In this document: positions 4,722 through 52,914 of the stretch, piece by piece | Position numbering within the stretch: the first letter of the stretch is position 1 | Layout of the letters: every line of letters begins with the position of its first letter | DNA from: Candidatus Pacearchaeota archaeon | Lineage (GTDB): Archaea > Nanobdellota > Nanobdellia > Pacearchaeales > GW2011-AR1 | Length of the DNA stretch: 64,000 nucleotides | Assembly (NCBI GenBank): GCA_041649295.1 | Contig: JBAZNI010000001.1 | Location: 394,991-458,990, forward strand | Direction of reading: 5' to 3' | Notes under the pieces: generated by a model | The model's input: only the letters and a program-made list of their open reading frames with translations | Told to the model about the DNA's origin: nothing | The model's database searches: none | Made by a program: the position numbers and the translations under genes

Positions 4722-5654
4722 ATGAAACATAAAAAAAGGAGTTTGGTTATATTGTTTGTATTCTTGATTCTATTTAGTATCAGCTTAACTTCAGCTACAC
4801 TTTCAACAAACAAAATAGTCGATAAAAATGTAACTATCGGATTATATCTCCTTAACCTAGGAAAATTTGATATAGCAACCGGGGCTTTCACCGCAGATTT
4901 TTACCTTTCATTTAACTGTGAAAATACCTGTCCTCAGCTTGAATTTGAATTTATGAACGGAAGAGCATCAAGCTTAGAAAAGATAATAGATACTCCAAAT
5001 GAAAAATTTTACAGAGTTCAGGCGAACTTAGTCAGTCCAATAGATTTAAAAAAATTCCCTTTTGATAAACAGAAATTGGAAATAATATTAGAAGATAAAA
5101 AAAAGACAACTGAAGAATTAGTTTATATTCCAGATGAAGAATCAAGTGGGATTGATGAATCAATTATTTTCATTGGATGGGAGATGGATAATTGGACAGC
5201 TTATAACAAAAATCACAAATATGACATTTATGGCGAAACTTATTCCCAGTATGTTTTTGAGATTCCAATATCAAGAATCACTGTAAACGCTTTTTTTAAA
5301 ACATTTCTGCCAATTACTTTTATAATCCTTGTTATGCTTTCAAGTTTTGTACTTGATCCAGATAAGATAACTACAAGATTAGCAATGGTAGGTTCTGCAT
5401 TAGTAGCGAGTGTTATGTTCCATGTCTCTCTTGCAAACCAAATACCCCCAGTGGGATATCTTACATTCATTGATAAATTTATGGTGTTAAGTTACTTTGT
5501 GATACTTATGAGTTTTATATTTAATGTGTTGTTGCTTGAACTTCATGAGCAGAAAAAAGACGAGCTTGTTGCAAAACTTCACAAAGCAACAGAATTCACA
5601 ATGTTCATATTGGTTCCAATACTTTATATTATTTTATTCCTGATTTTTCTATAG
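4722..5654 (+). CDS. prokaryotic pentameric ligand-gated ion channel (GLIC/ELIC-like) homologue
   Basis: Signal/TM at the N-terminus, then a ~190-aa beta-rich ectodomain with FPFDKQ (Cys-loop-position motif). Four TM helices follow, with an M1 Pro (FLPITF) and the post-M2 motif QIPPVGYLTFIDKF. Confidence 0.7.
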   Translation: MKHKKRSLVILFVFLILFSISLTSATLSTNKIVDKNVTIGLYLLNLGKFDIATGAFTADFYLSFNCENTCPQLEFEFMNGRASSLEKIIDTPNEKFYRVQANLVSPIDLKKFPFDKQKLEIILEDKKKTTEELVYIPDEESSGIDESIIFIGWEMDNWTAYNKNHKYDIYGETYSQYVFEIPISRITVNAFFKTFLPITFIILVMLSSFVLDPDKITTRLAMVGSALVASVMFHVSLANQIPPVGYLTFIDKFMVLSYFVILMSFIFNVLLLELHEQKKDELVAKLHKATEFTMFILVPILYIILFLIFL

Positions 5655-5670
5655 ATGGGTTTAAAGTTAA

Positions 5671-5683
5671 ATGCCCCCCACGA
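5671..5683. repeat. partial copy of the tRNA-Arg 3' end (att/TSD-like)
   Basis: atgccccccacga, compared with atgcccccacgagg at the tRNA (10144..10157). Confidence 0.55.
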
Positions 5684-5693
5684 TTACTTAACA

Positions 5694-5741
5694 CCAAGAA
5701 TCAAAGATTCTTGGATGCCATCAAGAATTATTAATTCTTGA
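5694..5741. terminator. two tandem perfect hairpins between convergent genes
   Basis: ccaagaatc-aaa-gattcttgg (5694..5714) and tcaagaatt-att-aattcttga (5721..5741), each with a 9-bp stem. Confidence 0.4.
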
Positions 5742-5776
5742 GGTCCTAAGGATTAACTCCCTAACATTTTCCTCAA

Positions 5777-7039
5777 TTATTCTAAAAGCCATTTCCATAA
5801 AGGCACAAATTTAATAATCTCTCCTCCAAATTTTTCTTCTGTTTCATAATCCCAAGTTATAACTATGAGATTCTTACATCTTAATTCCTTACTTGCTTTA
5901 AGTAAAGCATTAATCTCTCTTTCTTTTATTTCTTCTTTTGAATTTATGTAAGTTACTTGAATTAAAATTTCTATTTTTTTATCTCTTTTTATAACAAAAT
6001 CAACTTCATTTTGCTGATAATCTTTCCAGTAATAAACTTCAAATGAGTTTTCTTTTGCTTTTCTCCTTTGCAATTCAAGAGCAACCTCATTTTCTATAAC
6101 CTTTCCCTTGTTTTCTGAAAATTTGAATCCTATAGTATTCATTAACCCAGAATCAATACAATAAACTTTTTTAGGAGCTATAAATTGCTGTTTCAATTTA
6201 AAATCAAATCTTTCTAATCTAAATATTAAAAAAGTATTTTCAAGATATGAAATCCAATTAGATATTGTAGATACATGTTTAATATTAAATATCCTTGCTA
6301 ATTTGCTGTAAGTTATTTCTTCAGAAGAATTTGTTATGAGATATTTAGCAAGTTTCTTTATTTCTTCTTTTTTAGAAATATTATATCTCAATAAAATATC
6401 TTTTGTGAGTATATCTTCATAAATTTTTGAGATCATTCCCTTTCCAAATTTATATGCTTCTGGAAATCCTCCAATTTCCAAATATTCCTGCAAAGTCTTC
6501 ATAATTTCTGCTTTTTCTTGTGTGGTATATACTTTATTTTCTTTAACTTCCTTTAATTTTAAAAATTCTTTAAATGAAAAAGGAAATAGAATTATATCTA
6601 AATATCTCCCAGTTAAATGAGTTGATAGCTCTCCAGATAAAAGTTTAGAGTTGCTTCCAGTTAGAATTATCTTTTTTGTCCTTCTTAATCTGTTTACAAA
6701 TAGTTCCCAATTATCTACATTTTGAATTTCATCTAAAATTATGTAATCTATGTCTTCATAAAGTTCATAGAATGATTCTAAAATCTTATTCAAATCGTCA
6801 CTTTTTAATCCTGCTAACCTTTCATCATCAAAGTTAATATATGCGAATTTGTGAGGTTTTGCTAATAAATAAGAAAAAATAGATTTTCCACATCTTCTTA
6901 TTCCTAAAATGGCGAGTATGTTAGGATATTTTAAGGATTCTTTGCTTTTGTTTAATCCAGTTCTTTCTATTATTTTTTCTTCTTTTTCTATCTTTTCCAG
7001 TTCTTCTCTTTGCTCTTTGATTATACTCTTAAAGTCCAT
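5777..7039 (-). CDS. AAA+ ATPase of the AAA_14/DUF4143 type
   Basis: Walker A ILGIRRCGKS, Walker B YIILDEIQ. The 420-aa architecture is typical of the archaeal DUF4143 ATPase family. Confidence 0.75.
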   Translation of the reverse strand: MDFKSIIKEQREELEKIEKEEKIIERTGLNKSKESLKYPNILAILGIRRCGKSIFSYLLAKPHKFAYINFDDERLAGLKSDDLNKILESFYELYEDIDYIILDEIQNVDNWELFVNRLRRTKKIILTGSNSKLLSGELSTHLTGRYLDIILFPFSFKEFLKLKEVKENKVYTTQEKAEIMKTLQEYLEIGGFPEAYKFGKGMISKIYEDILTKDILLRYNISKKEEIKKLAKYLITNSSEEITYSKLARIFNIKHVSTISNWISYLENTFLIFRLERFDFKLKQQFIAPKKVYCIDSGLMNTIGFKFSENKGKVIENEVALELQRRKAKENSFEVYYWKDYQQNEVDFVIKRDKKIEILIQVTYINSKEEIKEREINALLKASKELRCKNLIVITWDYETEEKFGGEIIKFVPLWKWLLE

Positions 7040-7105
7040 ATTATAGTAATAGAAAGGTTATTTATAAAGCTTTCTATTGTTATTAGTAAGCTTTAGGGTG
7101 TTAAC

Positions 7106-7116
7106 GCCCCCACGAG
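7106..7116. repeat. partial copy of the tRNA-Arg 3' end (att/TSD-like)
   Basis: gcccccacgag is identical to 10146..10156. Confidence 0.65.
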
Positions 7117-7234
7117 ATGTTAAACCTTAGGTTAAGGTTCTCACGAGGAAAATGGAGACTTTCTCGACGATAAGGTTTTTTCATGTTTTAAGTTAAGGTT
7201 TCATTTGAACTTTTATAAAATTAATAGAAATAAC

Positions 7235-7243
7235 GCTCCCGAG
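7235..7243. repeat. degenerate copy of the tRNA-Arg 3' end
   Basis: taac-gctcccgag, followed by the same palindrome (tttaaccttaggttaaggtt, 7249..7268) that follows the copy at 7106. Confidence 0.4.
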
Positions 7244-7307
7244 CAGAGTTTAACCTTAGGTTAAGGTTAGCAATATAGTAAAAGAGTTAAGTGTTTCTAT
7301 TGACTTA

Positions 7308-7808
7308 TTAAATTAGATCAACCATCCAGTCATATTTGTATTCTTGGATTACTGGAAGAATTTCAAAATCTTTAATGACTTTTAAAAATTTAGCTCTTAT
7401 TTCTTTTAAGATGCTATCGAAATCTGCATAATCCTTTGCACACACCCCTATAGAAAAATCCCATTTCCCTGAATTTTTAGCAACATAAATTATTTGCCTA
7501 TGTGATTTTAAAAAATTAATAAAGAGTTCTTCTTCTTGAGGTTTAATGTTTAATAAGGCAAATCCCACATAAACATATAAGGGATAACCCAATAAGGCAG
7601 GGTTAACAAAAGCATGGTACTGTCTTATCAACTTATTTTGTTCAAGTCTTTTAATACGATACTTAACAACATCTCTGGGTAATCTTGCTTTTTTTGCTAT
7701 CTCACTAATTGTCTGTCTCGCATTTAATTGTAATTGCTCAATAATTTTCTTATCTTTTTCATCTAATTTGAATTTTTCTCCATATTCCAATTCTATTCTA
7801 TGAGTCAT
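7308..7808 (-). CDS. Lrp/AsnC-family transcriptional regulator
   Basis: HTH ISEIAKKARLPRDVVKYRIKRLE plus a C-terminal RAM-like domain. Start moved to the ATG at 7808; the track ORF starts at a TTG at 7910. Confidence 0.8.
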   Translation of the reverse strand: MTHRIELEYGEKFKLDEKDKKIIEQLQLNARQTISEIAKKARLPRDVVKYRIKRLEQNKLIRQYHAFVNPALLGYPLYVYVGFALLNIKPQEEELFINFLKSHRQIIYVAKNSGKWDFSIGVCAKDYADFDSILKEIRAKFLKVIKDFEILPVIQEYKYDWMVDLI

Positions 7809-7911
7809 GTTATCTATATTGGATGTATATTTATAAATCTTTCTCCATTTTGGATAATTTTCTAAAGTTAAGTATTTATAGTACATAATAGAACTACTTA
7901 TTAATGACAAA

Positions 7912-8556
7912 ATGGAAAATAAGAAAATACTCCGCGTCTATGATAGTGGGGCTAAAAGGTATGAAGAAGTAATGAAAGAATATTGGCACATTCCCAGAGA
8001 GCCATTCATAGCTTCGCTTGGATTTAAGCGAGGAGAGAGGATATTAGAATCAGCTGTTGGAACAGGTCTAAACCTCCCCTACTATCCTATTGGAACTCAT
8101 ATTTTAGGAATTGATATTTCTAAGAGAATGCTTGGCGAAGCAAGAAAGAAACAAGTTTTAGCTAATATTGAACTTGAAGAAGGAGACATTCATTCTTTAA
8201 GATTTCCAGATAGTTATTTTGATTCGGCTGTTTCAACTTTTACTTTATGCGTTGTTGAGAATCCTAAGAAAGCTCTTCAAGAGATTATAAGGGTAACGAA
8301 ATCAGGATCTAAAATAACTTTGCTTGATTATTGTAAATCAAGAAATCCATCTGTTACTAAATGGCAAGAGCTAATTCATTATCATGCTTCAAATATAGGA
8401 TTTCCAAAAGATGTGATTGTTTGGGATTCTTTAATGGATTATGATAAACTAATCTATCATTCCAATCTTCCAATTGAAGTTGAGAGTGATGAAAGAATTG
8501 AGAGTGAAAATCCTTTTTCTACTGGATGTAAAATTATTTTGAGGAATAGAAAATGA
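7912..8556 (+). CDS. class I SAM-dependent methyltransferase
   Basis: Motif I LESAVGTGLN. UbiE/Methyltransf_11-like layout. Overlaps the next gene by 4 nt (ATGA). Confidence 0.75.
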   Translation: MENKKILRVYDSGAKRYEEVMKEYWHIPREPFIASLGFKRGERILESAVGTGLNLPYYPIGTHILGIDISKRMLGEARKKQVLANIELEEGDIHSLRFPDSYFDSAVSTFTLCVVENPKKALQEIIRVTKSGSKITLLDYCKSRNPSVTKWQELIHYHASNIGFPKDVIVWDSLMDYDKLIYHSNLPIEVESDERIESENPFSTGCKIILRNRK

Positions 8557-9980
8557 GAATAGCGGGTATTTACAAAACAAATAGAAATGTTGGCTCACAA
8601 TTAGTTAGAACAGGAGAAACTCCTGAAGGAGTTGATAGTGTTGATTGGCCTTTAGGTTTACAAATTATTCTTGGAATAGCAAAACAAGAAGGACATGAAA
8701 TCGACTTATTTTTACCGAATGGTTCGAAAGATAATGGGAGATTAATTCAATTTAATCCAGATATTGTCTTGTATTCTTGCATGACCAATCAGTTTCCATT
8801 TGTATTAGATTTTCATAATGGATTGAGAGGAGTTAAACCTAACTTAGTTTCTGTAATCGGGGGTTATCATCCTTCAGCAAAACCAGATGTAGTTAAAGAT
8901 GGATTTAATTACGCAGTAATTGGAGAAGGAGAACAAACTTTTAGAGAATTACTAAAAGGAATTACTTCAGAAAATAGAGATTTTTCCAATATAAGTGGAA
9001 TTTCTTTTTTAAGAGACGGACAATTAGTAGTCACACCAAGAAGGGAAAGAATTTCTAACTTGGATGATTTGCCAGAGCCGTATATTAATGATAGTCTTTT
9101 AGCTCAGAAGTCTAATTATTTGGGTTATCCTTCTCAAAGGATAAGAGTTAGTGGCTATTCTGAATTTTCAAGAGGATGCACTTTTGATTGTAACTTCTGT
9201 GCTTCACCAAATGTCTTAGGAAGAAAACTTGTTTATAGAAGCCCTGAAAAAGTCGCCAAACATTGGAGAGAACAGTATGAAAAATATGGAATAAATGATT
9301 TGTTTTTAACTGATTTGAATCCAACATTAAATCCTCAAAAATTAGAGAGACTATCGGATGCTTTAATTGAAGAAGGAATTAACGAAACAGTATCTTGGGC
9401 ATTTATGTCGGGTTTTAAGAATATAACTCCTACTCTGCTGAGAAAATTAAGTGAAGGTGGAAGTAAATTCATTTGTTGGGGGCTTGAAAATGTTACTCAA
9501 CCTTCTTGGATTAAAGATGAAACAAGAAAATTGCCTTCTATTGAAGCAATGAGAGAAACTCTTAGTTGTTCAGAAAGTAATGGAATCATGAATGAAGGAT
9601 TTTACATAATTGGTTGGCCTAATGAAACAAGACAAGATTTAGAAAGGGCAATGGAAACACTTCCATTACTACCTTTGCATATGATCAGACCATCAATTTA
9701 TACTCCTCTTCCTGGAGCAGTTAATTTTGACATTGCAGAAAAACAAGGAGTCTTAACAGAAACTAATTTCTCAAAGTATGATACTCAACACTTAGTTTTC
9801 AAACATCCTAATTTTTCACAAGGAGAATTGGAAGGTTTACAAATGGAATTTTTAAAAAGATTTTATAATCATCCAACTTATAAAACAAGAGTAAGTGAAT
9901 TTGTTAGAATTAACCCCCAATATAAAGAATGTTTTGATGATTTTTTGGGAATAATGCAAAAATATCTAAAAAGTGTTTAA
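8553..9980 (+). CDS. B12-binding-domain radical SAM enzyme
   Basis: N-terminal B12-binding-like domain (DIVLYSCMT...VIGGYHPS), then the CxxxCxxC cluster SRGCTFDCNFCAS. Confidence 0.8.
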   Translation: MRIAGIYKTNRNVGSQLVRTGETPEGVDSVDWPLGLQIILGIAKQEGHEIDLFLPNGSKDNGRLIQFNPDIVLYSCMTNQFPFVLDFHNGLRGVKPNLVSVIGGYHPSAKPDVVKDGFNYAVIGEGEQTFRELLKGITSENRDFSNISGISFLRDGQLVVTPRRERISNLDDLPEPYINDSLLAQKSNYLGYPSQRIRVSGYSEFSRGCTFDCNFCASPNVLGRKLVYRSPEKVAKHWREQYEKYGINDLFLTDLNPTLNPQKLERLSDALIEEGINETVSWAFMSGFKNITPTLLRKLSEGGSKFICWGLENVTQPSWIKDETRKLPSIEAMRETLSCSESNGIMNEGFYIIGWPNETRQDLERAMETLPLLPLHMIRPSIYTPLPGAVNFDIAEKQGVLTETNFSKYDTQHLVFKHPNFSQGELEGLQMEFLKRFYNHPTYKTRVSEFVRINPQYKECFDDFLGIMQKYLKSV

Positions 9981-10011
9981 AATAAAAGATATATTCCTTA
10001 TGTAGTTAAAC

Positions 10012-10020
10012 GCCCCCCGA
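10012..10020. repeat. degenerate copy of the tRNA-Arg 3' end
   Basis: gttaaac-gccccccga. An inverted relative, cgggagcgtttaac, lies at 10065..10078. Confidence 0.4.
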
Positions 10021-10144
10021 AACTCATTCATAAAAATTTTACATTCGCTGTGTAAACACCCTTGCGGGAGCGTTTAACCAAATTTGACAGAATTTAGGCT
10101 TGTTTTTACACATAAAGTCGTGCAATTGTTAACCTTAGGTAACA

Positions 10145-10334
10145 TGCCCCCACGAGGATTTGAACCTCGAACAATTCCTCTTCGCTGTTTCTTCCTACTC
10201 CTTAAGGAGAGGTAGTGTTAGGAGACCTAGAGAACATATTTGTTCTCTGGTCCAGAGAAAATTTATTTTCTCTTGGAACCTTGGTTCTCCCACATCCGCA
10301 AGGAATTATTATATCCAAGTTTAACTATAGGAGC
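10145..10334 (-). tRNA. tRNA-Arg (anticodon GCG) with a 116-nt intron at canonical 37/38
   Basis: Exon 1 is 10334..10296: GCTCCTA-TA-GTTA-AACTTGGATA-TAAT-A-ATTCC-TTGCGG. Exon 2 is 10179..10145: A-GGAAT-TGTT-CGAGG-TTCAAAT-CCTCG-TGGGGGC-A. A bulge-helix-bulge motif (the archaeal splice-site structure) is present: 4-bp helix TTGC/GCGA with 3-nt bulges GGA and AGA. Confidence 0.7.
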
Positions 10335-10398
10335 TGATGTTTGTATAATTTTATGTAGTTTTATATAATTTTATAAAATATAATTTATTTAATAAGTT

Positions 10399-11001
10399 AT
10401 GGTTATTAAAAGGAAAAAATTGATTTTAAATACAATTGGGATATTTTTTATAATATTGGGAATTGTGGCAGCAATTAATACTTCTGTTAAAGTTCATCCT
10501 CAGGAATTCTTGTGGTTTTGTTATTTTTCCTTGATCATTCTTGGTGTTGGGGTACTAATTAGAAATTCTTTTATTGTTTCAAGTCAAGTTAATATGCTCG
10601 CAATTCCTGCTGTAATCTGGATAGTAGATTTTGCCTACGTTTTATTTACTAAAAAAAGTTTTTTTGGAATAACTAATTATTTTTTTGAAAGAGGGGACAT
10701 ATTATCAAAGATTATAACTTTACAGCATTTTATAACAGTTCCTTTGGCTATTTTTTGTATTTTTTTGATAGGCTATAAACGAAAAGATTCTTGGAAACTA
10801 AGTTTTGTTTACATCTCTTTAATGTTTTTTATTTCTAGGTTATTTGCTAGTAGCACACGAAATGTTAATTGTGTTTACAAATTCTGTGGGAATATTTCAT
10901 TTAACCCGGTTCTTTACCCTTTTGCATGGTTCGTAATTTTATTTTTAATGGTTATTGCTACTAACCTTATCCTGAATAAATTTCTTATAAAAAAGAGTTA
11001 A
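10399..11001 (+). CDS. hypothetical polytopic membrane protein (200 aa)
   Basis: About six hydrophobic segments. No motif recognised. Confidence 0.55.
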   Translation: MVIKRKKLILNTIGIFFIILGIVAAINTSVKVHPQEFLWFCYFSLIILGVGVLIRNSFIVSSQVNMLAIPAVIWIVDFAYVLFTKKSFFGITNYFFERGDILSKIITLQHFITVPLAIFCIFLIGYKRKDSWKLSFVYISLMFFISRLFASSTRNVNCVYKFCGNISFNPVLYPFAWFVILFLMVIATNLILNKFLIKKS

Positions 11002-11071
11002 TTTTTAACATTCCACTTTCAAGTAGTTCTAAAACTTTAAATACTAATAGGGGTTAAATTAGTTACGAAAT

Positions 11072-11114
11072 ACAACTAGAAGTAAATAAAGAGGGGATAC
11101 ATACAACATATTGT
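11072..11114 (+). promoter_or_regulatory. pair of NrdR-box-like sites upstream of nrdR
   Basis: acaactagaagt (11072..11083) and the palindromic acaacatattgt (11103..11114). The 31-bp phasing matches the spacing recalled for bacterial tandem NrdR boxes. Confidence 0.45.
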
Positions 11115-11142
11115 ATGTACTATTAACTAATAATATTTAAAA

Positions 11143-11577
11143 ATGATATGTCCTTTTTGTCAGAGCGAAGAAACAAAGGTAACAGATAAAAGAGCTTCAA
11201 GCGGAGCAATTAGAAGAAGAAGAGAATGTTTAAAATGCTCTAAGAGATTTACAACTTATGAGAAAATTGAACCAATTGAAAGGTATGTTATAAAAAAAGA
11301 TGGCAGAAGAGAACCCTTCAACAGAGATAAGATATTTTTAGGCATTATAAAATCCTGTGAAAAACGAAATATAAGCCACGAACAAGTTGAACAAATTGTG
11401 TCTGAAATTGAAAATAAAATAATAAAAAAGAACAAAGAAGTTCCAACAGCTAAAATTGGAGAGGCAGTTATGAAAAACTTAAAAAAATTAGATAAGATAG
11501 CTTACATAAGATTTGCATCAGTTTATAGGGATTTTAGAGATATAAACGATTTTACAAAAGAATTGAATTCATTATAA
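11143..11577 (+). CDS. nrdR: transcriptional repressor NrdR (zinc ribbon + ATP-cone)
   Basis: MICPFCQSEETKVTDKR...CLKCSKRFTTYE zinc ribbon, followed by an ATP-cone (KKDGRREPF..KI). Confidence 0.85.
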   Translation: MICPFCQSEETKVTDKRASSGAIRRRRECLKCSKRFTTYEKIEPIERYVIKKDGRREPFNRDKIFLGIIKSCEKRNISHEQVEQIVSEIENKIIKKNKEVPTAKIGEAVMKNLKKLDKIAYIRFASVYRDFRDINDFTKELNSL

Positions 11578-11644
11578 AAATGGTTAATAAAATAAGATTA
11601 TGTAAACAGGAAATTTCCAATACCTTATTTTGTAAAGGAGAACG

Positions 11645-13783
11645 ATGGTAAACAAAATAAGGAAACGTGATGGAAGTGTTGTTGTGTTTCAGGAAGAAAA
11701 AATAAAAGAAGCTATTTGGAAAGCAGTAAAAGCTGTTGGAGGTTCTAATAGAAAAAGAGCAGAAGAATTAGGAGAAATTGTCTGTAACCAGATTAATAAA
11801 AAATATAATGAAAATGGAATTCCAGATGTAGAAGAAGTTCAGGATTTGGTTGAAAAAACATTAATTGAAGAAAAGCATGCAAAAACAGCAAAAGCATATA
11901 TTCTTTATAGAAAAAGCCACGAAGAATTAAGAAATGTAAAAGGGCTGTTTGATACTATAGAAGCTGTTGACGATTATATTGGATTAAATGATTGGATGGT
12001 TAAGGAGAATTCTAATATGGGTTTTTCTTTGCAAGGGTTAAATAATTATATTGCAACTAAAATAGTTTCAAATTACTGGATTAGAAGAGTTTATCCAGAA
12101 GCAATAAGAAAAGCTCATGAAAATGTGGATATTCATATTCATGATTTAGGCACACTTGGAGCTTACTGTGCTGGCTGGGATTTGAAAGATTTGTTATTAA
12201 CTGGATTTAGAGGTGTTCCTGGAAAAGTAGAGTCTAAACCTCCAAAACATTTTAGAACTGCGCTAGGGCAGATGGTTAATTTCTTTTATACGTTACAAGG
12301 AGAAACAGCAGGAGCACAGGCATTTTCAAATTTTGATACTTTATTAGCCCCTTTTGTTAAATATGACCATTTAGAATATGATGAAGTTAAACAGGCAATT
12401 CAGGAATTTTTATTTAACTTATCTGTTCCTACAAGAGTCGGTTTCCAAAGTCCATTTACAAATATCACAATGGATTTGAAAGTTCCAGAATATATGAAAA
12501 ATGAGCCAGTTATAATTGGAGGAAAATCTATGCAGGAAACTTATGGCGAGTTTCAGAAAGAAATGGATATGATTAATATGGCTTTTGCAGAAGGTATGAT
12601 GGAGGGAGATGCAAGTGGGAGAGTTTTTACATTCCCTATACCTACATATAATATAACTTCTGATTTTGACTGGGATAACCCCAACTATAATCTTATCTGG
12701 GAAATGACTGCGAAATATGGAATTCCTTATTTTTCAAATTTTATTAACTCAGATATGAAACCAGAAGATGCAAGAAGTATGTGCTGCAGACTTCGCCTCG
12801 ATCAGACAGAATTAAGAAAAAGAGGAGGAGGATTATTCGGAGCAAATCCTCAAACTGGAAGCATAGGTGTTGTAACTATAAATATGCCAAGATTAGGATT
12901 TACTGCAGTTGATGAACAGGATTTTTTTGCACGTTTAGGAGAGTTAATGGAATTGGCAAAAGAAAGCTTGGAAATAAAAAGAAAATCTCTTGAGAAATTT
13001 ACAGAAATTGGATTATATCCTTATTCTAAATTTTATTTAAGGCATGTTCATAAAAGATTTGGAAATTATTGGAAAAATCATTTTGCAACTATTGGATTAT
13101 TGGGTATGAATGAGGCAATTATGAATTTTATGCCTGGAGAAAATATAGCAACTGCTAAAGGAAATGAATTTGCAATTAAAGTTCTTAAGTTTATGAGGGG
13201 TAGATTAGAAGAATTCCAGAAAGAGACAGGGAATATATATAATCTAGAAGCAACTCCTGGAGAAGGGACAACATATAGGTTTGCAAGAAATGATAAAAAA
13301 AGATTTGGAAGGATAATTGTTGCTAATGAGGAAGCTTTTAAAAATGGAGCTAAACCATATTATACAAACTCGACTCAACTGCCAGTTAATTACACCCCGG
13401 ATTTATTTGAAGCTTTAGAACTTCAGGATAATCTTCAGACGCAATACACTGGAGGAACAGTTTTTCACGCATTTATTGGAGAGAAACTTTCTGGACAAGC
13501 TGTTAAGGTTCTTGTTAAGAAAGTAGCTGAAAAGTTTTCCTTGCCATACTTTACAATAACCCCCACATTTTCAATTTGTCCCATACACGGGTATTTGGCT
13601 GGGGACCATGAGTACTGCCCAAAATGTGATAATGAAAATGGTTTTTCTAATGCAACTGAAAAAGCATCACGAGCTCAGGTAATTGTTGAAGCAATTTATA
13701 ATAATAAAATTGGGGATTCTATTATAGATACCCATCATCAAGATGCAATTGACATTAATTTAAAAAAAGGAGGTGAAATTTAA
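11645..13783 (+). CDS. nrdD: anaerobic (class III) ribonucleotide reductase NrdD, lacking the glycyl-radical segment
   Basis: N-terminal ATP-cone, catalytic finger-loop SMCCRL and C-terminal Zn site CPIHGY...CPKCD. About 50 unrelated residues follow before the TAA at 13781. Confidence 0.85.
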   Translation: MVNKIRKRDGSVVVFQEEKIKEAIWKAVKAVGGSNRKRAEELGEIVCNQINKKYNENGIPDVEEVQDLVEKTLIEEKHAKTAKAYILYRKSHEELRNVKGLFDTIEAVDDYIGLNDWMVKENSNMGFSLQGLNNYIATKIVSNYWIRRVYPEAIRKAHENVDIHIHDLGTLGAYCAGWDLKDLLLTGFRGVPGKVESKPPKHFRTALGQMVNFFYTLQGETAGAQAFSNFDTLLAPFVKYDHLEYDEVKQAIQEFLFNLSVPTRVGFQSPFTNITMDLKVPEYMKNEPVIIGGKSMQETYGEFQKEMDMINMAFAEGMMEGDASGRVFTFPIPTYNITSDFDWDNPNYNLIWEMTAKYGIPYFSNFINSDMKPEDARSMCCRLRLDQTELRKRGGGLFGANPQTGSIGVVTINMPRLGFTAVDEQDFFARLGELMELAKESLEIKRKSLEKFTEIGLYPYSKFYLRHVHKRFGNYWKNHFATIGLLGMNEAIMNFMPGENIATAKGNEFAIKVLKFMRGRLEEFQKETGNIYNLEATPGEGTTYRFARNDKKRFGRIIVANEEAFKNGAKPYYTNSTQLPVNYTPDLFEALELQDNLQTQYTGGTVFHAFIGEKLSGQAVKVLVKKVAEKFSLPYFTITPTFSICPIHGYLAGDHEYCPKCDNENGFSNATEKASRAQVIVEAIYNNKIGDSIIDTHHQDAIDINLKKGGEI

Positions 13784-19132: not shown

Positions 19133-19197
19133 GATTTAACTAAATAAACTTTATTTAAAAACTAAACTATACTGAAAAATATATAATTAAATTATTT

Positions 19198-19235
19198 AAC
19201 CTGTTCAAATCCCAGATTAAAAATGGACCCGAAGG
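19198..19235. repeat. 38-nt direct repeat of the tRNA-Lys 3' end plus trailer
   Basis: aacctgttcaaatcccagattaaaaatggacccgaagg matches 19290..19327 with one mismatch. The last 12 nt are the tRNA 3' end. Confidence 0.8.
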
Positions 19236-19315
19236 TACTCAAGAAGAAACTTCTTGGTAAGTTTTATTTTTGCAAATAAAACTGATTTGAACCTGTTCAA
19301 ATCCCAGGTTAAAAA

Positions 19316-19390
19316 TGGACCCGAAGGGATTTGAACCCTCGACACCTGGCTTAAAAGGCCAGTGCTCTGACCAGACTGAGCTACGGATCC
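19316..19390 (-). tRNA. tRNA-Lys (anticodon TTT), no intron
   Basis: Reverse complement: GGATCCG-TA-GCTC-AGTCTGGTCA-GAGC-A-CTGGC-CTTTTAA-GCCAG-GTGTC-GAGGG-TTCAAAT-CCCTT-CGGGTCC-A. 75 nt with a full cloverleaf. Confidence 0.9.
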
Positions 19391-19478
19391 ATGTATTACA
19401 GTTGATTTTAAAAGATAAAATTAGTTTTTAAACCTTATCTCCCTAAAGATTTAAAAATAAAATCTTCCATTAATTAAG

Positions 19479-39095: not shown

Positions 39096-39162
39096 ACAAT
39101 CGACATTTCGAATTTGTAAATGAGTCTGCTATAACAATCCTTACCTTTAAGGAACCTGTTAT

Positions 39163-39273
39163 GAGCCTGTAGCTCAGCCAGGTTAGAGCACTGCATTTTG
39201 TTGTGATGTAAAAGTTAGACAAAAGGTGATTCTGATAAGGCAGGGGTCCCCAGTTCGAATCTGGGCAGGCTCA
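39163..39273 (+). tRNA. tRNA-Ile (anticodon GAT) with a 36-nt intron at non-canonical position 30/31
   Basis: Exon 1 is 39163..39194: GAGCCTG-TA-GCTC-AGCCAGGTTA-GAGC-A-CTGC. The intron is 39195..39230. Exon 2 is 39231..39273: T-CTGATAA-GGCAG-GGGTC-CCCAG-TTCGAAT-CTGGG-CAGGCTC-A. Bulge-helix-bulge: central helix CACT/GGTG, bulges GCA and ATT, outer helix TTTTG/CAAAA. Confidence 0.75.
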
Positions 39274-39339
39274 TTTATTTTTATATGTCTATAGACTGCA
39301 CAGTGGTTGCAGGATTATAAAAACCCGCAGGTGGTTTTT

Positions 39340-39366
39340 AATCTGGGCAGGCTCATTTATTTTTAT
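39340..39366. repeat. 27-nt perfect direct repeat of the tRNA-Ile 3' end plus trailer
   Basis: aatctgggcaggctcatttatttttat is identical to 39258..39284. Confidence 0.85.
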
Positions 39367-52033: not shown

Positions 52034-52069
52034 TTAGTTTTATAAACACTTTCTACTGAGTTTATATAT

Positions 52070-52367
52070 GCCTCGGTAGCTCAGCAGGTAGAGCGAACGG
52101 CTGTAAGACAAGAAGGTTGAATTAGTGAAAAAATACTTCATAAGTTAGCAGCTTCCGAAAGAAATTCCGGAATGAAAAGCGAGTAAATTCAGGGAAACCC
52201 TACATTAAAGATGAGGGCAATCCTGAGCCAAGCCAGAAATGGAAGGTGCAGAGACTAGACACTCGCCACCTAAAGCAAAAAGCTATGGTGATGGGATAGT
52301 CCTACCCTCTAAGGAATTAGAGAAGGTTGTAACCGTTAGGTCAGAGGTTCGAGTCCTTTCCGAGGCG
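52070..52367 (+). tRNA. tRNA with a ~225-nt insertion/intron in the anticodon loop; anticodon GTA (Tyr) if spliced at 37/38, identity uncertain
   Basis: 5' part: GCCTCGG-TA-GCTC-AGCAGGTA-GAGC-G-AACGG-CTGTAA (52070..52106). 3' part: A-CCGTT-AGGTC-AGAGG-TTCGAGT-CCTTT-CCGAGGC-G (52332..52367). G1:C72 and G73 are not what is recalled for archaeal tRNA-Tyr. I could not draw a canonical bulge-helix-bulge. Confidence 0.6.
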
Positions 52368-52914
52368 TAATCCTAAAAGGTACTACGCCCTAATTTCTGC
52401 AAAAGGTTTATTAAGATAATATTTTCTAAGGTTCAATGACAATTAAAGGATTACCAAATAGAGAATGGAATGGGGTACTTTATATACCATGTAAAGCAAT
52501 TCAGCTAACAGTTTTTAGTGAAACTGATAAAAGAATTTTGAGATTAATCGCACCATATAAGAGGGATAAAGAAAGACTTAAGGAAAAAAGAATTGAAGAA
52601 TTAATTTCTAATCCTGCCCTAGTGGGATATCCTGGAACTACAACCCATAGAATGATGTTAATAGATGAATTAAAAGATAATGATTTTTTGCCGATTTCAC
52701 ATCAATTACTAGACAGAAACCAAGAATATAAAGTTGATGGTATGGGTTTTGTTGCTGTTAATTTTAATAGAAAGCATGCTATTGGATATGGAAGTAGTGG
52801 CGAGTTTGGTCTTGGAATAAATGAAGAACATTTAGCTCAAGTCTTTTCTGAACTTCCTAAATGGACTTATGAATTTAGATAGTTTGTGCCCCTCACTTTC
52901 CCCTTTTAGGATTA
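52368..52914. mobile_element. 547-bp cassette with 13-bp perfect terminal inverted repeats, flanked by a 10-bp duplication of the tRNA 3' end
   Basis: Left inverted repeat taatcctaaaagg (52368..52380); right inverted repeat ccttttaggatta (52902..52914). The direct repeat tttccgaggc occurs at 52357..52366 (inside the tRNA) and at 52919..52928. Confidence 0.6.
52436..52882 (+). CDS. hypothetical protein (148 aa), sole ORF of the inverted-repeat cassette
   Basis: ORF. No motif recognised. Confidence 0.5.
   Translation: MTIKGLPNREWNGVLYIPCKAIQLTVFSETDKRILRLIAPYKRDKERLKEKRIEELISNPALVGYPGTTTHRMMLIDELKDNDFLPISHQLLDRNQEYKVDGMGFVAVNFNRKHAIGYGSSGEFGLGINEEHLAQVFSELPKWTYEFR

Follow-up and report, generated by a model that had tools for sequence, protein, structure and literature searches.

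A probable tandem array of two recombinase-less elements at the 3' end of tRNA-Arg(GCG) in a Pacearchaeota-like archaeon

The 3' end of a tRNA-Arg(GCG) gene was identified as the probable attachment site (attB) of site-specific elements in Pacearchaeota-like DPANN archaea, and the DNA analysed here would carry a tandem array of two such elements, neither with a recombinase of its own; this reading was given a probability of roughly three in four. The DNA in question, called the window throughout, is a stretch of 64,000 nucleotides from a Candidatus Pacearchaeota archaeon (assembly GCA_041649295.1, contig JBAZNI010000001.1, positions 394,991 to 458,990). It belongs to a low-GC DPANN archaeon (31.6% GC, with archaeal translation factors encoded); its aIF5B was 62–66% identical to those of Nanoarchaeia metagenome-assembled genomes, and homologues of neighbouring genes are annotated as Pacearchaeota. 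A first reading made from the sequence only had proposed serial, site-specific insertion of integrase-less units at this tRNA. This was upheld by the positional bias of extra copies of the tRNA end, by exchanges between element arms and cargo, by differing array orders and by integrases found at the same site in related loci. The features of the array are given below, from the tRNA outwards; SAM denotes S-adenosylmethionine, and P' and P denote the tRNA-proximal and distal arms of an element.

10145–10334, minus strand: tRNA-Arg(GCG), intact and with a good cloverleaf (ARAGORN, introns allowed); 5' exon 10296–10334, 116-nt intron 10180–10295, 3' exon 10145–10179; proposed attachment site (attB/attL)
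10146–10156, plus strand: core 1, GCCCCCACGAG, the 11 nt of the tRNA that immediately precede the discriminator; proximal border of element 2
9981–10145: arm P' of element 2, with a terminal inverted repeat (10129–10145) and a hairpin (10006–10020/10064–10078) formed by an att-like motif and its inverted copy
8553–9980, plus strand: B12-binding radical SAM enzyme, 475 aa (Pfam PF02310 and PF04055)
7912–8556, plus strand: class I SAM-dependent methyltransferase, 214 aa (Pfam Methyltransf_11/25/31)
7308–7808, minus strand: Lrp/AsnC-type regulator (Pfam HTH_24, HTH_AsnC-type, AsnC_trans_reg)
7117–7307: arm P of element 2, with a terminal inverted repeat/palindrome (7117–7135) and a second core-like motif plus palindrome (7231–7268)
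7106–7116, plus strand: core 2, an exact 11-nt copy; border common to element 2 (distal) and element 1 (proximal)
7040–7105: arm P' of element 1, Family B-like (see below), GTTAACACCCTAAAG in the sense of the tRNA
5777–7039, minus strand: AAA_14 plus DUF4143 ATPase, 420 aa (Pfam), with a weak Mrr_cat-like match at the C-terminus
5685–5776: arm P of element 1, matching locus L049 at both stretches compared
5673–5684, plus strand: core 3, GCCCCCCACGAT, slightly degenerate; outer border of the array, 19 nt past the stop codon of the pLGIC-like gene
4722–5654: pLGIC-like (pentameric ligand-gated ion channel) gene (Pfam), adjoining the outer border

The intron of the tRNA gene lies at the canonical 37/38 position (ARAGORN -i), and because it interrupts the gene, the tRNA was missed by default ARAGORN and at the Rfam gathering threshold. 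An independent Logan assembly of SRR8542065 (locus L002) was collinear with the window from 5701 to 11944, so the arrangement does not stem from an error in one assembly.

Both elements are delimited by copies of the tRNA end. The sequence-only reading had placed repeats of this end, in the same orientation, at 7106 (exact) and 5673 (near-exact), and both were borne out. The exact GCCCCCACGAG occurred twice in 64 kb (7106–7116 and 10146–10156) and never in 100 dinucleotide shuffles, while the similarity between cores 1 and 2 reached 18 of 22 nt and extended into the T-arm. Core 3 matched the tRNA end at 9 of 11 positions without gaps, or at 10 of 10 positions of GCCCCCACGA if one extra C is ignored, and ended in T; the same ...ACGAT variant also closes Family B elements at five other loci (L049, L056, L101, L136 and L148). 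Among all runs of five C or G in the whole window, just three were part of a GTTAA-N-GCCCCC motif (5674, 7107 and 10013), and the tRNA itself (10147) has the variant GTAACAT-GCCCCC. The core motif is therefore restricted to 5.6–10.2 kb of the 64 kb and is not a generic intergenic repeat, the alternative by which the sequence-only reading had proposed to judge itself. Chance similarity, or a repeat scattered throughout the genome, can draw on the shortness of the core (just 11 nt) and on the count obtained with up to two mismatches, which was 3 against 1.6 expected. Set against the shuffles, the lack of the motif in the other ~59 kb and a bias across loci with p ~ 2e-15, its probability was judged to be negligible.

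That bias emerged from a comparative set. Since the collections held no close relative, JGI (Joint Genome Institute) metagenomes were scanned with the 23-nt 3' end of the tRNA, which produced at least 119 loci; all locus counts given here are among the matches listed. Of these 119, 89 were tRNA-Arg(GCG) genes on low-GC contigs, 34 of them bearing an intron. In ~107 low-GC loci, out of 111 that were non-redundant, the 10-nt core had 24 exact extra copies, and every one of these lay on the 3' side of the tRNA and in its orientation (binomial p = 1.9e-15), with 320 kb sampled downstream and 337 kb upstream. When tRNAs of any type were considered (208, non-redundant), 20 had a direct repeat downstream that matched 12 nt or more of their 3' end, none had an inverted or upstream copy, and controls using the 5' end gave three matches. 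At L018, where tRNA-Arg(GCG) has a different acceptor stem, the downstream copy followed its own tRNA at 16 of 17 nt. Thus, the repeat co-varies with the tRNA, which is the signature of site-specific integration into a tRNA 3' end.

The tRNA-Arg(GCG) intron itself was variable among the window, L110, L018 and 55 other loci, being present or absent and 65, 66 or 116 nt long, with the end of the 3' exon identical. On these comparisons, intron content appears to turn over quickly at this gene.

Element 2 (7117–10145) is 3.0 kb long and has a base composition like that of the backbone. Its inverted-repeat ends, 7117–7135 (ATGTTAAACCTTAGGTTAA) and 10129–10145 (TTAACCTTAGGTAACAT), and a further palindrome copy at 7249–7268 were located as the sequence-only reading had claimed. 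A palindrome, TTAACCTAAGGTTAA, stands beside the core in each arm, and TTAACCTTAGGTTAA with at most two mismatches was matched six times where 0.48 would be expected; all but one of these matches fell at the three palindrome sites of element 2. Two more copies of the core, at 7235 and 10012, had been proposed as degenerate repeats. Both exist: 7231–7268 is a 38-nt direct repeat of 7102–7139 (79%), and 10006–10020 pairs with an inverted degenerate core copy at 10064–10078 in a 15-bp stem. However, they do not mark further cassette borders. The P' arm, hairpin included, showed 83% mean column identity over 100–150 nt with the proximal arms of L131, L118 and L072, which enclose other cargo, while the distal arm was conserved over ~190 nt with L072 (including the 7231–7268 motif) and over ~100 nt with L120 and L126. 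Since the copies at 7235 and 10012 sit within these conserved arms, they are internal arm motifs of a single element, and the array comprises two elements rather than four. Covariation in the P' hairpin was uninformative with four sequences. The palindrome is likewise a conserved arm motif that flanks the core on either side. In its outer part, the distal arm also reads as a degenerate copy of the T-arm, a resemblance that would be expected of a core-type site mimicking attB.

The cargo of both elements agreed with Pfam as first described, that is, a DUF4143 ATPase in one and an Lrp regulator, a methyltransferase (MT) and a B12-radical-SAM (rSAM) enzyme in the other. In element 2, the Lrp gene probably starts at the ATG at 7808, giving 166 aa, where the mechanical open reading frame (ORF) extends to 7910. 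The radical SAM enzyme is rare, with ~10 homologues at 44% identity or more in 5.8 billion proteins; the closest NCBIfam models were BchE/HpnJ-like and scored far under their cut-offs. The complete Lrp-MT-rSAM module recurred at L154 with 67% nucleotide identity, and there homology was limited to window positions 7317–9955, which coincide with the gene borders; no tRNA, core or palindrome was found near the L154 module.

One further homologue of the radical SAM enzyme (47% identical) occurs at L156, positions 8001–10105, in a 710-kb Pacearchaeota genome (CP061211.1). The next gene there matches cyclodipeptide synthase (CDPS) weakly, whereas in the window the enzyme is preceded by the methyltransferase. 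This neighbourhood hints at a possible role for the cargo in small-molecule or peptide modification.

Element 1 (5685–7105, 1.4 kb) carries a single ATPase gene, assigned to the PADLOC phage-defence-candidate family PDC-S01 (E = 5e-109). Its P' arm is homologous to the GTTAATCCTTAGGATTAA arms that adjoin the tRNA at L049, L101, L148, L136, L033 and others. Homologues of the ATPase were found just downstream of tRNA-Arg(GCG) at L087 (68% identity, with decayed cores) and at L049 (45%). At L049 the ATPase lies in a unit of 1471 bp directly at the tRNA. The 16-nt sequence TTAACGCCCCCACGAG at core 2 of the window is identical to the tRNA junction of this unit (16/16); at the other end, window positions 5675–5693 equal L049 4921–4939 (19/19), and 5721–5797 is 87% identical to L049 4968–5050 over 83 nt. 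The ends of the cassette are thus better conserved than the protein they enclose, the ATPases being merely 45% identical. Distal to the ATPase unit of L049 there is a 29-nt junction that is identical at 28 of 29 positions to window 10127–10155, which is the junction of the tRNA and element 2. The order of the array is therefore tRNA-[element 2]-[ATPase] in the window and tRNA-[ATPase]-[P' arm of an element 2-like unit] at L049. Two element types in opposite orders imply independent insertions.

Base composition dips in the ATPase cassette, to 24% GC (5800–6800) from ~30–33% in the flanks. The DUF4143 ATPase was also considered as the agent that mobilises its own cassette; this was rejected as a necessary role, given that the same arm family encloses cargo without any ATPase.

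When the sequences that lie 3' of the tRNA were sorted, together with those just before each distal core, recurrent families of arms were resolved. Element 2 belongs to Family A, in which the proximal arm begins with R-TGTTACCTAAGGTTAA and the distal arm ends (GCGGGAG/CTCGTGAG)AACCTTAACCTAAGGTTAAT-yATC, followed by the core TCGTGGGGGC. In Family B, which includes the ATPase element, TTAATCCTTAGGATTAA flanks the core on both sides. Arms of the Family A type enclosed the Lrp-MT-rSAM module in the window (3.0 kb), an AbiEii toxin-antitoxin module at L120 (2.2 kb), and a His_Phos protein, a deaminase-methyltransferase fusion and an APH-like protein at L072 and L078 (4.5 kb). Family B arms elsewhere enclosed a nucleotidyltransferase module, a metallophosphoesterase, a peptidase S51, methyltransferases and unknown proteins. 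Given that the same arms surround other cargo, and that the same cargo occurs without the arms (L154), arms and cargo have separate histories. Across genomes the arms were 83–95% identical around cargo proteins that were unrelated or merely 45% identical, which points to selection on the arm sequences. A palindrome arm stood directly at the tRNA in ~24 of ~99 non-redundant tRNA-Arg loci, and the long P' arm was tRNA-proximal in every case seen of Families A, B and E. On this evidence, the array of the window would exemplify a modular system that is widespread at tRNA-Arg.

Separate histories are also what suits an integron-like platform, in which purpose-built, non-autonomous cassettes are shuffled by a host-encoded recombinase and the tRNA-Arg end acts as attI. 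We regard this as possible but doubtful. It would accommodate the many units with one to three unrelated genes inside the same arm families and without an integrase remnant, the breadth of the cargo (ATPase, AbiE module, peptidase S51, metallophosphoesterase, methyltransferases, nucleotidyltransferase), the single core that neighbouring units have in common and the frequency of palindrome arms at tRNA-Arg. It does not account for the lack of a resident recombinase gene beside the tRNA, in the window or at most loci, nor for junctions that are not attC sites, nor for genes in mixed orientation, with some three-gene units having a divergent promoter region of their own. Moreover, the palindrome-arm Family E is tied to an element-borne integrase that is decaying in place, which favours ordinary decay.

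Pfam found no recombinase or transposase domain (PF00589 or other) above cut-off in the five ORFs of the cassettes, a hidden Markov model (HMM) of the related integrases had no match among window ORFs of at least 60 aa, and tblastn was likewise negative, in agreement with the first reading, which had recognised no integrase or transposase in the cassettes. Ten further large ORFs of the window were housekeeping genes or had no Pfam match. At related loci, tyrosine recombinases were found 60–136 nt from the same tRNA end (L105, L037, L133, L134, L124, L121 and L060). At L105, a 409-aa Phage_integrase protein begins 136 nt from the tRNA end; its element has the same 10-nt core at its borders, and a Family B unit comes next. 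Homologues with 52% identity lie 80 nt from the tRNA at L037 and L133, and L134 has a fragment where its contig ends. More than 2,300 proteins in public data belong to this family and carry the annotation of integrases from Nanoarchaeota or Pacearchaeota; some adjoin tRNA-Asp instead, ahead of reverse-transcriptase and conflict-system genes. L124 encodes a XerA-like recombinase (82 bits) and L121 a truncated one. At L060 a weakly scoring integrase (Pfam, 18 bits) accompanies an arm with a GAACTTAAAGGTTC palindrome; at L071 and L092 a homologous palindromic arm precedes ~93 aa from the N-terminus of the same type of integrase, the ORF being only 126 aa at L071, within a repeat-bounded region of 10.9 kb, and cut by the contig end at L092. 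These three loci therefore link palindromic arms to a tyrosine recombinase, and L071 shows its decay in place. The integrases of related loci were distant XerA-like tyrosine recombinases in general, and scored far under the NCBIfam cut-off for integron integrases.

Integrases of the abundant L105 type were also seen to lead islands with conflict-system genes. At L149 (10001–18630), beside tRNA-Asp, the integrase leads an island with a reverse transcriptase and an AAA_5 ATPase; at L151 (10001–15013) it leads an island with CTD10, MC6/MC7 and DUF2326 proteins. Both are defence islands of DPANN genomes.

The decay seen at L071 raises the possibility that the units are immobile fossils, that is, once-autonomous elements stripped of integrase and most other genes, of which the att copies remain. 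The truncated integrase, the degenerate outer core of the window (extra C, terminal T), the ATPase cassette of L087 with its decayed cores, and the failure to find an integrase in the window would all fit. It is harder to reconcile with core 2, which is an exact 11-mer, with arms that are 83–95% conserved around unrelated or 45%-identical cargo, and with the ATPase cassette, whose place in the array of the window is not the one that it has at L049; accordingly, a complete loss of mobility was considered to be the less likely outcome, though with a real chance of being correct. Arm conservation above that of the cargo and the differing array orders would favour at least recent mobility, while mobilisation in trans may continue to the present day.

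A third explanation invokes transposition. Under this, the inverted repeats of 17–19 bp would be transposase ends, the repeat of 10–11 nt a target-site duplication, and the units would resemble miniature inverted-repeat transposable elements (MITEs) or mobile insertion cassettes (MICs), moved by a transposase in trans. The geometry is suggestive, in that terminal inverted repeats lie directly inside a constant 10–11 nt direct repeat in Families A and B and no recombinase is present in cis. However, P' was always tRNA-proximal in the cases seen of Families A, B and E, and the same 10-nt repeat bounds the integrase-bearing element of L105; a fixed orientation and a repeat common to integrase-bearing elements argue against a transposon with target-site duplication. 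Neither was any transposase found in the arrays. The length of the repeat varied from 10 to 46 nt by element type, the tRNA-Lys and tRNA-Ile of the window included, which fits a segment of identity between attP and attB rather than a fixed stagger. Transposition was judged improbable.

Variation near the tRNA was not always resolved into cassettes. On a conserved RadA-RPA-HIT backbone of another lineage (17 loci), the gap between tRNA and RadA ranged from 18 nt to 10.5 kb. L063 and L083 shared a backbone that was 99.9% identical yet differed in their tRNA-proximal segments, without clean direct repeats; this pair supports a hot spot rather than a clean cassette event. It also suits an account without any site-specific recombination, in which the repeats are trailer or terminator motifs and cargo is swapped by homologous recombination between flanks, for which arms of 100–190 nt at 83–95% identity would be long enough. 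Such exchange leaves unexplained why the distal border should repeat the 3' end of the tRNA and change along with it, why strand and side should be absolutely biased, and why integrases should lie at the junction. It was considered very unlikely.

Attachment of site-specific elements at the tRNA end remains the preferred reading, and several observations weigh against it. No integrase occurred among the ORFs tested in the 64 kb and in 5 kb upstream, on a contig of 480–565 kb, nor were there remnants of integrase pseudogenes in the window cassettes, whose non-coding parts (66–190 nt) are all arm. The arms of the L105 type have ACCATTTTGG-type repeats and no palindrome, and so the palindrome-armed cassettes are linked to an enzyme only through the weakly scoring L060 type. 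The inverted arm motifs are separated by 11 nt, which exceeds the 6–8 bp that is typical of overlap regions for tyrosine recombinases. An empty site in a close relative with matching flanks was not encountered, and no excised or circular attP junction, reconstructed for Family A and Family B, was found in IMG/VR; a scan of IMG/VR with the tRNA 3' end returned only tRNA-Thr genes of bacteriophages, which are irrelevant here.

The relatives available for an empty site were distant. Beyond tRNA-Arg, the window continues with a gene for a 200-aa membrane protein, then NrdR and then NrdD. In relatives, aIF5B was at most 66% identical and the 200-aa neighbour at most 48%. Relatives in GTDB, approached by synteny through aIF5B (62–66% identity), proved too distant and non-syntenic, and yielded no empty site. 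Five homologues of the 200-aa protein were found, all distant, among them L018, which provided the co-varying repeat. The nearest relative, L110 (NrdR 74% identical), had no cassette in the 233 nt available; a convergent gene ends 90 nt from its tRNA, and this neighbour differs from the pLGIC gene of the window.

The following sequence of events would account for the array. On entry of each element, the attP that it carries would have recombined with the T-arm/acceptor end of the tRNA, attP consisting of arm P, the 10-nt core TCGTGGGGGC and arm P', with a palindrome of 15–17 bp within 1–5 nt of the core in each arm, so that P and P' would form inverted repeats around the core. Crossover would take place within the 10-nt core, the palindromes being candidate binding sites for the recombinase; an intact tRNA would be restored, and a copy of the core left at the far end of the element. 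The ATPase element would have come first, and the Lrp-MT-rSAM element next, at the tRNA-proximal core, displacing the ATPase element outwards; since newcomers use the intact, tRNA-proximal core, the Lrp-MT-rSAM element is probably the younger. The enzyme would most likely be a tyrosine recombinase acting in trans, because such integrases occupy exactly this site in relatives.

The closest described counterpart is the bacterial cis-mobilizable element (CIME) with tandem accretion. CIMEs keep attL and attR but have lost their integration genes, and accrete in tandem at tRNA 3' ends in Firmicutes, where they are related to ICESt1; a newcomer enters an att site that holds the target tRNA end, generating tandem arrays with shared att sites (PMC5704250). 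The window units similarly keep attL and attR, with cores at both ends and conserved P and P' arms, and lack a recombinase; therefore, they behave like CIMEs. Absence is what was observed in the window units themselves, decay having been seen at L071 and L121. They differ from CIMEs in belonging to a DPANN archaeon without conjugation machinery, in their very small size (1.4 and 3.0 kb) with all non-coding DNA made up of arms, and in arm families that enclose unrelated cargo in many genomes with no integrase remnants. Recurrent arms, exchanged cargo and the lack of remnants make the system unlike the simple decay of one ancestral integrative and conjugative element.

Among archaea, viruses and plasmids with integrases of the SSV and pNOB8 types enter tRNA genes and generate a direct repeat of a tRNA segment, and degenerate trapped elements accumulate in chromosomes through what has been called gene capture; the principle of tandem accretion extends to archaeal tRNA-integrating elements as well. 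The window resembles these in its tRNA target and in the direct repeat of a tRNA segment, but the integrases at the tRNA-Arg site in relatives are distant and XerA-like. In SSV-type elements, integration splits the integrase gene, and the halves int(N) and int(C) come to lie at either border. This arrangement was rejected for the window, where the borders are 66–190 nt of non-coding arm, too short to hold int fragments, and where no integrase-like ORF fragment was found. As in a typical tRNA island, the tRNA is left intact and a tRNA segment is directly repeated, but there is no integrase belonging to the element. Additive flexible genomic islands next to tRNA genes are an established concept of pangenomics, and they are resembled by the hypervariable segment 3' of the tRNA, where tRNA and RadA are 18 nt to 10.5 kb apart while the backbone is conserved; at tRNA-Arg, however, individual units and arm families can be resolved, and these are mostly without an integrase. 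MICs and MITEs have inverted-repeat ends and passenger genes, no mobility gene, and are presumed to be moved in trans. The window units share the inverted-repeat ends and the lack of a mobility gene, but target a single tRNA end in a fixed orientation, and their repeat is the attB segment used by integrase-bearing elements; thus, inverted repeats are present while site and orientation are invariant, unlike a transposon.

Integrons and CALINs (clusters of attC sites lacking integron-integrases) are the closest functional analogue. In these arrays, including archaeal integrons, attC sites are 57–141 nt long with R''/L''-L'/R' boxes, and arrays without an integrase are common (PMC9668308). The likeness lies in small, recombinase-less units with varied accessory or defence cargo, extending in one direction from a fixed site, with palindromes at the junctions. 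The analogy fails on attC and IntI: the window junction is a tRNA-derived 10-nt core with palindromes of 15–17 bp and there is no IntI, while units of the window type hold up to three genes in both orientations and are anchored at a tRNA rather than attI. A permissive Rfam scan of 5500–10500, which included no attC covariance model, gave matches at chance level only. The GTTAAAC...GTTTAAC hairpin was considered as an attC site and rejected, since mismatches had to be allowed for the boxes to fit and the junctions are built differently.

Other observations concern the remaining tRNA genes of the window and its outer border. The final 12 nt of tRNA-Lys(TTT) (19315–19391, minus strand) and ~28 nt of its trailer (19287–19326) are directly repeated 92 nt downstream, at 19196–19235; the copies flank ~54 nt of hairpin-rich, unique sequence, which leaves no room for a gene, and so constitute a miniature duplication of a tRNA end. 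After tRNA-Ile(TAT) (39162–39274, plus strand, with a 36-nt intron), a 27-nt repeat comprising the last 16 nt and 11 nt of trailer (39259–39285) recurs at 39340–39366, the second copy lying 82 nt downstream. Similar units of 72–130 nt were seen after tRNA-Arg at seven loci (L018, L038, L073, L086, L111, L145 and L098) and after tRNA-Lys at L059. Such short units could be minimal att remnants or tiny elements.

The Logan assembly breaks between 5696 and 5701 (loci L004 and L002), 12 nt past core 3 and within a perfect hairpin of 9 bp, CCAAGAATC-AAA-GATTCTTGG. The break could reflect strain heterogeneity at the array border or an effect of assembly; as it falls beside the hairpin and off the core, no inference about heterogeneity in the population was drawn from it.

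Elsewhere in the window, the anticodon loop of tRNA-Asn(GTT) (52069–52368) is interrupted by a 225-nt insertion with a match to the group I intron model of Rfam (52128–52323, 78 bits, E = 4e-18). A group I intron within an archaeal tRNA gene is unusual.

In the literature searched, the coverage of which was incomplete, no description of such an array in DPANN archaea was found. The broadest interpretation of the data is a tentative one: that DPANN archaea of the Pacearchaeota/Woesearchaeota type possess a tRNA-anchored mode of gene capture analogous to integrons, in which recombinase-less cassettes with arms of 100–190 nt and a palindrome beside a 10-nt core would carry exchangeable cargo of one to three genes, often for defence, and would be inserted in succession at the 3' end of tRNA-Arg(GCG) by tyrosine recombinases in trans, with short versions at other tRNAs.

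The genomes of DPANN archaea are very small and little is known of how they acquire genes. The window and ~24 related loci point to a recurrent route of gene gain, in which one tRNA end collects small modular units. These include candidates for defence (the PDC-S01 ATPase, AbiE and the nucleotidyltransferase module) and a rare metabolic module, comprising a B12-radical-SAM enzyme and a methyltransferase. The attP/attB pair and the integrase families would be candidate tools for site-specific integration in organisms without a genetic system. If mobility in trans is confirmed, this would be an archaeal counterpart of CIMEs or of integron-like capture, and the question would become how cargo enters a fixed pair of arms.

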